Both the position numbers and the translations under genes were made by a program. Positions 1,961 through 10,472 of a stretch of 64,000 bases of DNA are shown piece by piece. Where the stretch lies: the NCBI GenBank assembly GCA_963801605.1, contig CAWDFP010000006.1:352001-416000 (forward strand). The letters are read 5' to 3'. The stretch comes from an uncultured candidate division Zixibacteria bacterium (lineage in GTDB: Bacteria > Zixibacteria > MSB-5A5 > UBA10806). The first letter of the stretch is position 1, and the number at the start of each line of letters is the position of its first letter. Below the pieces are notes generated by a model, which searched no databases, was not told where the DNA came from, and was given only the letters and a program-made list of their open reading frames with translations.

Positions 1961-2092
1961 ATTAATTTGATTTCAGATAATCATCCAAGATAAATCCTAT
2001 CCATGTTTTACACAATTATCAATATTGCCAGATAATTCGGTTTTATGCAAATTATAAATCGTTTTACGGCCTGTTTGTGTTACAAACGAAAA

Positions 2093-2524
2093 GCGCGAAG
2101 GTATATTCCTTCGCGCCTACGGATTTCCTTGAAACAGAGAGAATTATCTTAGGTTTCATCGGCAGGATTCTATCGCCCATACCTGCCTGCATTTTCCCCC
2201 AACTACTTCCCCTTCACTTGCTATAACCATTTAGCCCTGGTATCGAGTTCCTTGATTATTAGTAAATATATCCGGGCAGGGAGCCTTAGCTCCCCCTAAA
2301 TAAAAATGCCCCGCTTTTCTAAGTTGGGGACCAGCAATAATTAAGGCCGGAGTTCGGGAATTTGAAAGTGCACACTGTTTTTAGCTACGATAAAGGATTT
2401 TAATGCCACCGGTCGCTTTTTGCGTTCGCTCTCCCCGGAACCCGGGGGTCATGGCGTAAGCTCATCGCCGGGTGCTCCTTCATTGGTTAGGTGTAAGCCT
2501 TTCAAATTTGCCTACGTCCGGCCT
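2093..2524 (-). ncRNA. Candidate large structured non-coding RNA (6S-sized rod plus further domains)
   Basis: No ORF of 60 aa or more; many nested inverted repeats, several with G-U pairs that favour the minus strand; upstream sigma70 promoter; 3' hairpin GCGCGAAGG/CCTTCGCGC followed by TTTT. Confidence 0.55.
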
Positions 2525-2530
2525 GACTTT

Positions 2531-2558
2531 AAACTATCAAATGCTATCAAAAAAGCAA
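2531..2558 (-). promoter_or_regulatory. Putative sigma70 promoter for the candidate ncRNA
   Basis: TTGCTT-16nt-TAGTTT with extended TGn. The predicted +1 (~2524) coincides with the first base of the closing helix. Confidence 0.5.
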
Positions 2559-2633: not shown

Positions 2634-3339
2634 TTAATAGTACACTGCTAAATTGTCGGTAATTTCCAAAAGGTGCTTCAAATGTGAGTATTCGATTAGC
2701 AGAACAATCACTATTGATACTGACAAGATAACCGTCACAGCCATATATATTCCGGTTTTATATCTTTGTCTGATCGAGGATATAAAGACAGCAAGATACA
2801 GAGCATAAAGGGCGCTTATCGCGGAAAGTTTTGTTAACATTGCTTTTTGAATATCTAACAAGGTTTGTGGAGATAAATTTAGAATTCCTTCGGCGGTTTT
2901 CCAAAAGTATATATTCATGACAACAAATACAAAATAAAAAAAAGAAGCAATTGCCAATTGGATATAAAATCCCTTCCAGTTTTCAAATTCGGGCGGTCTA
3001 ATCTGGCCGGGTTCAATAATATCTGCCTGAACCTCATTTCGAGTAAAGCTTCTGTCGTACTCGGTTTTGCCACAGGCTGGGCATCTTACCAATCTGGAAT
3101 CAATGGCGTTGATGGCCATGATATTTGGAATTGTAGAAAGAGCGAAATATCTATCGCATTGAGCGCATTGATAAACAATTTGACGAGAGAGCCGCCAGAA
3201 AAAACCATAAAGCAGCTACACCGAATTCCAGGATAGCTATTCCTGTTAAGAACGGGCTTTTGGGAATCAACAATGAAGTAACACTTACCACGCCAACTAC
3301 CAGCCCAGCGAAGAGAAACAACATTAGTAATGATTTCAT
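2634..3339 (-). CDS. Membrane protein with internal CxxC...CxxC zinc ribbon (frameshift ~3180 joins two track ORFs)
   Basis: Rejoined sequence is two TMs + YQCAQCDRYF...VRCPACGK + three TMs; the start codon abuts the thiC stop. Confidence 0.65.
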
Positions 3340-4618
3340 CTATTTAGGTTTCCCATCCAGCACCTCAAAGACACAGAACGGGCCGCACATCGAGCAGTAG
3401 TGGCTGTTATTTATCCGGGGATCTCGCAAGCATTCCTCGCGACGAATTTCGGTAAATTTGGTTTTGTCGATAGAATATTTATGCATTCCTTCCCAGTCCA
3501 CGGCGGCGCGGGCCAGGGCCATCTGATGATCCTGTTCCTTGGCCTTTTTATTTCCGTTGGCTATATCGGCGATATGAGCGGCAATCTTGGAGACTACCAC
3601 ACCCTCACGAACATCGGCGATATCCGGCAAGCCGATATGCTCTTTGGGTGTTACATAGCAAAGGAAATCGGCCCCATGCATACCCGCTAATGCGCCGCCA
3701 ATGGCGCAGGCGATATGATCATAACCTACAGCGATATCCGTAGGCAGCGGACCCAAAACATAGAATGGGGCGTTGGCGCAATACTTTTTCTGAAGCTTCA
3801 CATTCTTCTCGATCTCGTGAAGCGGGATATGTCCCGGCCCCTCAATAATTACCTGGACACCCTTATCGCGGGCAATCTGAGCCAGTTTGCCAATTGTCTT
3901 AAGCTCTCCAATCTGGGCTTTATCGGTGGCATCGTCGATACATCCCGGCCGCAAGACCGTCACCCAGGCTGATCGTAATATCATATTCTTTGGCGATATC
4001 GAGAACTTTATCGAAATGCTCGAAGAGGAAGTTTTCTTTCTTGTTATGCTTCATCCAGGCCAGAAGCAGCGCCCCGCCGCGGCTGACACATTTCATCACG
4101 CGCTTTTCAACCAAAGGAAAGGCCTTGCGAGTGACTCCGGCATGAATGGTAATATAGTCAACACCGTCCTCAGCATGCTTATGCAGCACTTTCAAATAAG
4201 TATCGATAGTCATGTCCTCGAATCTTCCCGATTCGAGAGCGCACTGGTAGATTGGTACTGTACCGAGGGGCACCTCGCACTTTTCCAGAATGCTCTTTCT
4301 GGTACCATCGATATCTTTGCCGGTACTTAAGTCCATCACGGTATCGGCTCCGGCCTGGACTGCGGTCGAGAGCTTAACAAGCTCGGTTTCGAGTGTCGAT
4401 TTTATAGCCGAGGTTCCGATATTGGCATTTACCTTGACCTGCAGGCCCTTGCCGATACCGATAGGTTTGAGGTTTTTGTGATTTTTATTGGCGGGGATAA
4501 CGATAGTCCCATCGCATATCCCTTTTTTCAACCATTCGATATCTACACCCTCAATTTGAGCAACATATCTCATCTCTTCAGTGGTCTGGCCTTGCCTGGC
4601 TTTTTCGAGTTGCGTCAT
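3340..4618 (-). CDS. thiC: Phosphomethylpyrimidine synthase, short form (frameshift ~3953)
   Basis: KVNANIGTS, ADTVMDLSTG, SRGG, SLGDGLRPG, EGPGH, CYVTPKEH and C-terminal CSMCGxxC. Confidence 0.88.
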
Positions 4619-6388: not shown

Positions 6389-9218
6389 ATGACACCTTCC
6401 AATCTGGTTATTCAGGGAGCCAGAGAGCACAATCTTAAAGAATATCGATATCACCATCCCGCGCGGGAAGTTGGTGGTAATTACAGGCTTATCCGGGTCC
6501 GGTAAATCATCTTTGGCGTTTGATACCATCTACGCCGAGGGTCAACGGCGATATGTCGAATCGCTGTCGGCATACGCACGGCAGTTTCTGGGCCTCATGG
6601 AAAAGCCGGATGTTGACTTTATCGATGGCCTCTCGCCTGCAATCTCGATTGAGCAACGTACCTCGGCCAAGAATCCCAGATCAACGGTAGGAACCGTAAC
6701 AGAAATTTACGATTACCTGCGTCTCCTTTACGCTCGTATCGGGACTCCGCACTGCTACAAATGCGGCCGTCCCATAACTCAACAGACCGTTCAGCAAATT
6801 TCCGATACCATCATGGAGCTTCCCGCTAACAGCAGAATTCAAATCATGGCGCCGTTGGTCAGGGGACGGAAAGGTGAATACCGCGAAATATTCGAGACGG
6901 TCAAACGCGAGGGGTATGTGCGGGTGCGCGTTGACGGCGAGGTGCATGATGTTGAAGAGCCGATTACGCTCGACAAGAAGAAAAAGCATTCTATCGAAGT
7001 GGTGGTTGACCGCCTGGTAATAAACAACGGTGTCCAAAAGCGTCTGACCGATTCGCTTGAGATCGCCTTGAAGCTTGGCCAGGGACTTCTGATTGTCGAT
7101 CAGGGGGGCAAAGGTGATACGGTTTACTCCGAGCAGTTCGCCTGCCAGTACTGCGGTATATCGTACGAAGAGCCGCAGCCTCGGATGTTCTCATTTAACT
7201 CTCCTTATGGCGCTTGCCCGGTTTGCCTGGGATTGGGATACAAGATGGAACTCGATGATGATCTTGTTATCCCCGATAGAAATTTGTCCATTGCTCAAGG
7301 CGCTATCGCCCCCTGGGGCATTCCTCGCGGTAACTATTATTTCGGAATGATACGCGCGGTAGCCGATCATTACGGAATAAATCTGCGTAAACCATTTAAG
7401 GATCTTTCGGAAAAGGCTCAAAAGACACTTCTTTATGGCTCCGGTCGCGAGGAGATCAAATTCTCCTGGGAGCGCACCGATGGCAAAGGGACCTGGGAAA
7501 ACTACAACCGTTTCGAGGGGATAGTAAATAATCTCAAACGGCGGTACCGTCAAACAGATAGCCAGAGTATCCGTGAGTGGATTGAACGCTTCATGTCGAT
7601 CAAGCCGTGCGAAGGATGCGGCGGAGCGCGTTTGAAAAAAGAGGCTCTGGCTGTAAAGATCGAGGAAAAATCAATTGCAGAGCTAACCGCCTTGCCTGTC
7701 AAACAAGCCAATGTCTTTTTCGAAAACCTGAAGTTATCAGCCAAACAAAAAGCAATAGCCCGTCAAATACTAAAAGAGGTCAAAGAGCGCCTGGGATTTC
7801 TTATAAATGTCGGGCTTGATTATCTGACGCTCGATCGCTCCGCCCAAACTTTATCGGGCGGCGAGGCCCAGCGTATCAGGTTGGCAACCCAGATCGGCTC
7901 GCGCTTGACGGGTGTGCTTTATATCCTGGATGAACCATCGATTGGGCTTCATCAGCGCGACAATCAGCGGCTGCTCGACACGCTTTTTTCGCTGCGAGAT
8001 ATCGGCAATACGGTCCTGGTGGTCGAGCATGACCGTCAGACAATGGAATCGGCCGATTATATTATCGATCTTGGTCCCGGAGCCGGCAAAAACGGCGGCA
8101 CCGTGGTAGCTCAGGGGACGCCGGACGAGATCAAGCGTTCTCCAAAATCTCTGACCGGCAAATATCTTTCGGGCAAGCTTGAAATTCCGGTCCCTGAAAA
8201 GCGCCGAAAGGGGACAGGCTCCAAAATCGTTCTTCGAGGGGCGCGCGGCAATAATCTTAAGAATATCGATATCGAATTCCCGCTGGGGAAGTTGATTTGT
8301 ATAACGGGCGTTTCCGGCTCGGGCAAATCAACACTTGATCAATGAGACCCTGTATCAGATTTTATCGAAAGAGTTTTACGGTTCTCGGACGGCGCCATTG
8401 CAGTACCGCGAAATAGTGGGCTTGAAAAATATCGACAAGGTAATTGCAATCGATCAATCACCCATCGGACGGACCCCGCGGTCCAATCCGGCAACATATA
8501 CCGGGCTGTTTACGCCGATCCGCGATCTGTATACTCAGATTCCGGAATCTAAGGTACGCGGTTATGGGCCGGGACGATTCTCTTTCAATGTGCGCGGCGG
8601 ACGATGCGAAACTTGCGAGGGTGATGGCATCATCAAGATTGAGATGCACTTTTTGCCCGATGTCTATGTCCCCTGCGAGGAGTGCAAGGGGGCGCGTTAC
8701 AACCGCGATACCCTGGAGATTAAGTTTAAGGGGAAATCGATCTCCAACGTGCTCGATATGACTGTCGATGAGGCGCTGGAGTTTTTCGACCGTATCCCGC
8801 GTATCAAACGCAAACTGGAAACGCTGGTTGGTGTCGGTCTTGGGTATATCCATCTCGGCCAGCAGGCTACCACGCTTTCGGGCGGCGAGGCCCAGCGCGT
8901 CAAGCTTTCGACTGAGCTGTCGAAAGTGGCCACCGGCAATACTTTTTATATTCTCGATGAGCCAACCACGGGCTTGCATTTCGAGGATATCAAGATGCTT
9001 CTAAATGTGCTCAATACGCTTGTCGAGCGCGGCAATACGGTGGTGGTGATCGAGCACAATCTCGATGTCATCAAGACTGCCGACTGGATTATCGATCTCG
9101 GTCCCGAGGGCGGCGATGAAGGCGGTAAGGTAATCGCCACCGGGACACCGGAGCAGGTGGCCAAAGTCGGCAAAGTTACACCGGGCAGTTTTTGAAGGAA
9201 GAGTTGAGTACAAAGTAA
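6389..9218 (+). CDS. uvrA: Excinuclease ABC subunit A (indels ~6440, ~8335, ~9170)
   Basis: GAREHNLK start, two Walker A motifs ([16 protein letters not shown]), two LSGGEAQR signatures, zinc fingers, C-terminal SYTGQFL. Confidence 0.97.
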
Positions 9219-9273: not shown

Positions 9274-10472
9274 ATGGAAAACATTAATAAAGAAAGAAGC
9301 CCATTCTATCCTGGACAACCGGTTCCTGTGGATTTATTTACAGGAAGGCTTGAGCAGATTAATCGTATAGCAAGATCTGTAAGACAAGTGGAATTGGGCA
9401 AACCGCAGGCCATTTTCCTAACCGGCGAATATGGCATTGGGAAAAGCTCTCTCGCCGGATTTATGAGGATTCTTGCCGAGAAGGAAAACAAGCTAGTAAG
9501 TATTTATACGCTATTAGGAGGGATAAATAGTATTGAAAAATTAGTTTCCAAAATAGTGGAGGCAGCAATTCATGGGCAGGCTTACGAGCCCACCAACACG
9601 GAAAGAATGCGGAATTTTCTTTCGAAATATATTGGAAAACAAGAGTTATTTGGAGTAAGTATTAATTTTGATGCATTACGCGCAGATACCCCCAATATTT
9701 CAAGCGGATTTTTGCCTTTTTGAGAAGTCTTTTTGAGAGGCTTAAGGATAACGATGTAAAAGGTATAATAATAATATTAGATGAAATCAATGGTATTGCA
9801 TCCAATCCCGAATTTGCACATTTTATTAAAAGTCTGGTTGACGATAATGCGCTCAACAGGAATCCTATCCCATTAATGCTCTTAACTTGCGGAGTAAAAG
9901 AGCGATTAGGCGAAATGATTCAAAATCATCAACCGATCGAACGGATATTTGATATAATCGAAATATGCCCCATGACCAAAGAAGAAATGCGTGATTTCTT
10001 CCTAAAATCATTTAGCTCTGTCGATATTAAGGTAAATGATGATGCGTTAGATCTTCTCTGCCATTACTCGGCTGGGTTTCCAAAGATAATGCATATTATT
10101 GGTGATGCTACGTTTTGGATCGATAAAGATAATATTATTGACGCAAATGACGCTTCCACTGGAATATTACTGGCGGCCGATGAAGTTGGAAAGAAATTCT
10201 TCGATCAACAAGTTCTCAAAGCCCTGAGAAGCAAGGATTACCATATCATTCTTACAAAGCTGGGTAAGTCGCAATTTGATTTGTCTTTTATCAAAGCCGA
10301 TATAGAAAAAGGGCTTACTGAAAGCGAAAAAAAGAAATTTAATAATTTTTTACAAAGAATGAAAAAGTTGAAAGTGCTTAGTTCTGGCGAAGAGCGTGGC
10401 GAATATATTTTCAATAGCCGCCTCGTAAGGCTTTACGTTCTATTAAAATCACTTGAAAAACCAATCGAGTAA
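9274..10472 (+). CDS. AT-rich P-loop ATPase (AAA_16/archaeal-ATPase-like) with probable C-terminal winged helix; frameshift in T-run ~9717
   Basis: SPFxPG..FxGR N-terminus, Walker A GEYGIGKS, Walker B IIILDE, SAGFP (GxP) motif. Confidence 0.75.

Follow-up and report, generated by a model that had tools for sequence, protein, structure and literature searches.

A 64,000-nucleotide stretch of an uncultured Zixibacteria bacterium (hereafter the window, from genome G000) encodes on its minus strand a rod-shaped RNA of 181 nt, which probably represents a new, unmodelled subfamily of 6S RNA and is likely the missing 6S RNA of the Zixibacteria. The gene is real, its rod covaries, its distribution can be followed from genome to genome, and the same genomes lack a 6S RNA that Rfam detects. 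A preliminary description had put forward a multi-domain RNA of about 430 nt at this place: its 181-nt rod stands, whereas the remaining ~250 nt neither fold above shuffles nor are conserved. The reading of the rod as a divergent 6S RNA, also proposed there, is the best one, although sequence-only homology to known 6S RNAs was negative.

The rod (2524-2344) folds as it had been drawn, at -63.1 kcal/mol with a z-score of -3.5, a stability that none of 200 shuffles equalled. The rod covaries over 62 homologues. When these were aligned to R1, a covariance model built from 20 close homologues, 92.8% of cells paired, against 31-48% for slid partners, 34 of 46 pairs changed on both sides, and none of 500 shuffles reached any covariation measure; this alignment leans toward R1, and the homologues, being related, are not independent. 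In helices 1 and 2, which form the closing arm, 13 of 16 pairs vary on both sides and 90-95% of cells are paired. The apical arm combines covarying helices 8 and 10 with an invariant helix 9, and the UGAAGG/CCUUUA helix is paired in 99% of cells, with four of its six pairs never varying. Of all helices in the family, ACAC/GUGU within the bubble pairs least (75%), and it is missing from the 62-sequence consensus, so the family bubble probably measures about 16 x 22 nt, exceeding the ~7x14 nt drawn earlier. In the window's own copy this helix is predicted to be paired and the bubble to be partly closed, C32 included. A hairpin in the 3' bubble strand did not rise above shuffles in the Zixibacteria homologues (31 of 62). 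The rod also carries two one-base deletions relative to the family, which we take to be real because they are common to the congener G001.

The strand was assigned from the homologues, in which G-U and U-G cells (218) exceed A-C and C-A cells (45), and from the orientation of promoter and terminator. The minus strand, claimed earlier with support from G-U pairs, is therefore right, but folding alone favours the opposite one: over 2090-2530 the plus strand folds better than the minus strand (z -4.67 versus -2.02). The parts of the locus are listed in Table 1.

Table 1. Features of the locus in window coordinates, with the evidence for each.
Feature	Position	Strand	Basis
-35 hexamer TTGCTT, sigma70-type promoter of the rod	2553..2558	-	Sequence and relatives
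Extended -10 element, TG-n-TAGTTT	2531..2539	-	Sequence; +1 predicted at 2524
Rod-shaped non-coding RNA, 181 nt, probable 6S RNA	2344..2524	-	Fold, distribution, covariation, RNA-library contigs
Closing arm, 5' strand (partner 2344-2368)	2499..2524	-	Covariation
Central bubble, 5' template-like strand, 16 nt, conserved C(U)AACA	2483..2498	-	Alignment
UGAAGG, 5' strand of the bubble-flanking helix (partner CCUUUA, 2391-2396)	2477..2482	-	Alignment
Apical arm, UGAGC-nnn-CGCC and AGCGAA-GC-AAA conserved around a variable hairpin (2433-2447)	2417..2464	-	Alignment of 62
Putative -10 mimic UAUCGU, start of the 3' bubble strand	2387..2392	-	Alignment
Weak terminator-like hairpin and U tract, at the family's usual terminator site	2301..2330	-	Aligned with the strong terminators of relatives
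Lineage-specific spacer (second domain of the preliminary description), outside the conserved RNA	2119..2300	-	No folding signal; G001 alone shares part
Strong intrinsic terminator (hairpin and U tract 2118-2091), possible end of a read-through precursor	2083..2118	-	87% over 55 nt with G001

Rod and promoter region are intergenic, lying between a small ORF for a membrane-protein-like product (2634-3119) and an NAD-dependent epimerase/SDR gene (1091-1960). The promoter proposed for the rod, with its extended TG, a 16-nt spacer between the two elements and a +1 at about 2524 on the minus strand, is present in the sequence; a consensus promoter scanner did not include the site (2558-2531) in its list. 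All 18 relatives that were aligned keep the CTTG of the -35 region unchanged. More broadly, TTG[AC] occurs 22-42 nt upstream of the rod in 52 of 62 Zixibacteria homologues versus 8 of 62 control stretches, and at the same distance in 15 of 15 and 15 of 15 members of two further homologue sets versus 6 of 14 and 3 of 15 controls. Many relatives have a GCCGATA motif immediately before the -35 box, some 55 nt from the start of the rod (L005, L007-L009, L013-L021; window 2586-2580); it is possibly a regulator site or a piece of a divergent promoter. Scanning the window with Rfam 15 gave no match at the gathering score and chance-level matches only at E<=10.

In Zixibacteria the gene is near-universal and single-copy, as expected of a housekeeping 6S RNA, and no other 6S RNA scores above cut-off beside it. 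R1 finds one copy in G000 and one match each in 143 of 151 genomes of the class and in 148 of 151 genomes of the phylum Zixibacteria, two samples that overlap. A pattern scan of a named genome collection returned at least 119 loci; of the first 80, 59 were confirmed by R1, as were 31 of the other 39. Two of the R1-confirmed records led to the phyla of genomes G204 and G205, neither of which has a genome in common with the first sample. R2, a later covariance model, matched 24 of 26 genomes in the G204 phylum and 16 of 41 in the G205 phylum. In 150 genomes from the phylum to which G278 belongs, R2 gave no true match, its one hit being the end of a cold-shock gene; among viral contigs, eight pattern matches were found, none of which R2 confirmed, and the neighbour protein was not found there. 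A MITE or other repeat was considered and rejected, given the one copy in G000 and the single match per genome hit. Neighbouring genes vary: according to gene names read from translations, the RNA is often divergent from acpS in Zixibacteria, whereas in the other two phyla it faces recA convergently or lies divergent from proS. In members from the phylum of G205 (L250-L259), which are divergent from proS, the apical arm is partly shortened or lost and AUGAAGG/CCUUUA is kept.

The genomes that carry this RNA show an apparent 6S gap. RF00013 scored above cut-off in 0 of 151 genomes of the class sample, 0 of 26 of the G204 phylum and 0 of 41 of the G205 phylum, and a search for the canonical 6S gene elsewhere in G000 returned no credible RF00013 locus. 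The model reached its cut-off in 4 of 14 controls and therefore misses many lineages. RF01685 was above cut-off in 0 of 40 genomes, RF01693 gave nothing credible in G000, and neither revealed a rival locus; the gap between zapA and rny in G000, about 35 nt, is too small for a 6S RNA. G000 has its RNase P, tmRNA and SRP RNA genes at other loci, all scoring above cut-off. The one sub-threshold RF00013 hit among the 151 class genomes, in G116, scored 45.6 bits (cut-off 46.4; L065 2540-2756, G116:C18). This hit and the family member of G116 sit on different contigs, the genes beside the hit look planctomycete-like, and the hit is probably contamination.

As described in PMC8876501 and PMC9670815, 6S RNAs are rods of about 200 nt, opened by a central bubble whose 3' strand is -10-like and topped by an apical arm that is -35-like. 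The family agrees in length and shape, with model matches of 177-214 nt around the 181 nt of the rod and covariation in both arms. At the junction of helix and bubble, in a register picked after inspecting the alignment, the U, A and last U of the -10-like element are present in 62, 62 and 61 of 62 Zixibacteria homologues, and in 57 of 62 the template side has a C at a distance of 11 nt from the U of the helix. This distance from C to U equals the -11 to +1 spacing of a DNA promoter. The fit of the -10 element and start site is weaker in the other two phyla, the -7 U being present in just 9 of 15 members of one and shifted by one in the third. Within the 5' bubble strand, the pRNA start is predicted at C32 (2493), with U29 (2496) as the alternative. 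By analogy with the 6S literature, the apical arm is a candidate -35 mimic. In E. coli 6S RNA, changes at 131-136 barely alter binding (PMC8876501).

The RNA was then compared with the known classes. Shared with RF00013 (E. coli SsrS, B. subtilis 6S-1) are the length, a closing arm, an internal bubble and an interrupted apical arm, a 5' bubble strand of 16 nt as in the Rfam consensus, an apical arm with A-rich loops on either side of a G-C island of 2 bp, and the one copy per genome. By contrast, there is no model or sequence match in either direction, the start is predicted at a C near nt 32 (GTP-initiated), and the link to ygfA is lacking, PF01812 not having been found in the 87% complete G000. 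The closing arm of the family, 26 nt, is also shorter than that of the E. coli and B. subtilis RNAs, in which pRNA starts at U44 of 6S and at C40 of 6S-1, respectively (PMC8876501, PMC9670815). 6S-Flavo is itself a 6S class that earlier models had overlooked (PMC2864571), and the Bacteroides 6S RNA and its pRNAs were validated later (PMC7366714). With 6S-Flavo (RF01685) and Bacteroidales-1, or 6S-Bacteroidales (RF01693), the family shares a rod of about 170-200 nt and, by eye, a colinear series of motifs: UUUGA-AAACU(C)AACA opens the bubble, CC(C/U)U-AAC-GU follows the upstream helix, and GGAGUUU precedes the closing arm. The apical arm differs from theirs, and, whereas 6S-Flavo sits between zapA and rny, the family gene is free-standing, often divergent from acpS; no zapA, ygfA or rny synteny was seen at the homologue loci inspected. 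In the phylum of G278, about two thirds of 30 zapA loci (L287-L316) have zapA closely followed by a phosphoesterase-like gene with no space for a 6S RNA, so that these lineages, too, keep their 6S RNA elsewhere or lack one.

Homology to the known classes was searched for at the level of sequence and of covariance models. R1 and R2 recognise neither E. coli 6S nor any of six further RF00013 hits, an Rfam scan of the window together with 16 and 20 homologue loci gave nothing credible, and the family does not reach the Rfam cut-offs of RF00013 (46.4 bits), RF01685 (85) or RF01693 (60). Four comparisons on sequence alone, with 6S RNAs of the RF00013 and Flavo types, were negative or at control level. 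Three of these, an HMM, a two-motif scan and a profile alignment, did not exceed controls with known 6S RNAs, the profile alignment allowing end overlaps and being insensitive; in the fourth, HMMs against 6S-Flavo gave no signal either, scoring 17 of 62 sequences in sense versus 14 of 62 in antisense at <=5 of 100 shuffles.

Weak reciprocal hits in the sense orientation were obtained between models of the family and of the Flavo/Bacteroidales RNAs. With filters off, R2 gave 23 weak hits on the 30 zapA loci, two of them full length and in sense on Rfam-called 6S-Flavo RNAs (13.8 and 10.1 bits), nine of the 30 loci having been scanned with Rfam for 6S-Flavo. For the reverse direction, R3 was built from nine 6S-Flavo RNAs only. 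All of its 12 hits of at least 180 nt fell on family members, at 9 of 30 test loci that had been chosen partly for resemblance, and sense was best in eight; the top hit reached 23.6 bits (E 0.004), scores were weak, and antisense also scored. R3 also hit 7 of 20 pre-chosen members, sense being best in 7 of 7, with three genomes overlapping the 30-locus test. It does not hit the window's own copy, missed six RF00013-type 6S RNAs, and missed three other housekeeping RNAs at full length. The recognition of the sense strand by R3 is suggestive of remote homology to 6S-Flavo but no proof of it, the sequence-only profiles having been negative.

The extent of the gene could be delimited downstream of the rod. 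Searching 2080-2560 by BLAST against 40 relatives gave 21 strong matches, 20 of them confined to promoter and rod (query 1-221), which speaks against the co-transcribed second RNA, or new ~430-nt class, of the preliminary description; the lone match beyond the rod, in G001, reaches the far terminator. In 23 other genomes of the order, the downstream 259 nt had one credible match, again in G001, over the last 55 nt in the terminator region, and six further matches spanned just 21-35 nt (E 0.01-0.04). The downstream stretch is single-copy in G000 and absent from the third congener and every other relative searched. The second domain (2330-2196) and the hairpins 2187-2161 and 2157-2131 can be drawn in predicted folds, but are no more stable than shuffles (z -0.52 for 2340-2190, -1.22 for 2330-2196 and -0.78 for 2190-2120) and are not conserved, and these claims were dropped; the last hairpin with its U tract was recovered at 2118-2091. 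Relatives carry a hairpin and U tract about 10 nt behind the rod, and a terminator stands within 75 nt behind it in 48 of 62 homologues versus 13 of 62 control stretches. The corresponding hairpin of the window (2330-2301), overlooked earlier, has a z-score of -0.18 and fails the terminator scan. From BLAST reach, terminators and downstream searches we conclude that the conserved gene is the rod and that the spacer is local. The terminator usually found behind the rod seems to have decayed in G000 and G001, both of which have a new, strong one about 230 nt further on (window 2330-2083; L003 1480-1745); since the first looks decayed, a long read-through precursor to 2091 may be made in both. 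This pair of terminators, the second being strong and common to both genomes, is what would favour a functional molecule of ~430 nt with two domains, ending at 2091 in G000. Such a molecule is highly improbable, because the downstream stretch shows no folding signal in G000 (z +0.21 for 2343-2120) or G001 (-0.96), its predicted folds differ between the two genomes, and it is missing from their relatives. Two other roles were considered for this region and rejected: a small ORF in the spacer, where the short frames of G000 and G001 differ in length and sequence, and a leader of the downstream SDR gene, given that neighbours vary across the phylum, that terminators trail the rod and that a promoter-like site of its own precedes the SDR gene.

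The rod might also be something other than a 6S RNA. That it belongs to a new, non-6S class of housekeeping RNA, single-copy in at least three uncultured phyla that would then be without any 6S RNA, and that its apical loops and invariant helix serve core polymerase or some unknown partner, is unlikely. A housekeeping RNA functionally unrelated to 6S, such as a protein scaffold or a sponge, that forms a rod of about 185 nt by coincidence would agree with the lack of an Rfam match in the window and 36 homologue loci, with the negative sequence-only tests and missing 6S-type synteny, and with apical loops that are unusually strongly conserved. This is quite unlikely, as the rod fills the 6S gap in three phyla, its -10-like motif and template pyrimidine stand at promoter spacing, and the 6S-Flavo model recognises its sense strand. 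An RNA holding core polymerase without sigma70 has a precedent in the Ms1 RNA of Actinobacteria, which is likewise structured, free-standing and 6S-resembling, and was first predicted as a 6S candidate by structure before it proved to be a core binder (PMC9130861). However, Ms1 is longer, about 300 nt in M. smegmatis, and is known from another phylum, the Actinobacteria (PMC9130861); no Rfam Ms1 match was found, and both the length and the -10 mimic of the rod fit 6S RNA, making an Ms1-like role very unlikely.

If the rod is a 6S RNA, as we favour, a sigma70 transcript would start at 2524 and terminate close to 2301, or else continue by read-through as far as 2091 and then be trimmed. The rod is predicted to fold as an open-promoter mimic that holds the sigma70 holoenzyme idle, in which sigma region 4 would recognise the apical arm and UAnCGU (2392-2387) would be read as the -10 element. 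A pRNA templated from C2493 (plus-strand sequence from 2493 upward, G first) would open the closing-arm helix and free the polymerase. Such a 6S RNA would end the apparent lack of 6S RNA in Zixibacteria and in two further phyla, and hundreds of unannotated genes would supply the seed for a new Rfam family. It would also be a natural variant with a near-perfect -10 box and exact promoter spacing to the start site, and hence a probe for the features that polymerase reads; a known regulator would be extended, with no new mechanism. The family may link RF00013 with the Flavo/Bacteroidales classes. In the literature, we found no paper on 6S RNA in Zixibacteria or in MAGs of candidate phyla, and nothing related on noncoding RNA of Zixibacteria; members of the family might be listed in supplements or subscription papers.

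A small share of the stretch is represented in seven metatranscriptome runs, of which four were examined. In 4 of 4, there were matching contigs, five short ones in all, from close relatives and lying within 2346-2514. The contigs of three runs end at 2511-2514, and most of the loose ends are adapters. These contigs, which were retrieved through the window sequence and give neither strand nor level, hint weakly at a discrete short RNA. Since the runs contain relatives, missing contigs over 2090-2340 are uninformative.

Finally, thiC, uvrA, an AAA ATPase gene and zapA are each spread over two frames (window 3340-4618, 6471-9195 and 9274-10472; L027 1360-1650), and the SDR gene beside the rod is about 40 aa shorter than in relatives; the split frames and the short SDR gene suggest indel errors in the assembly.
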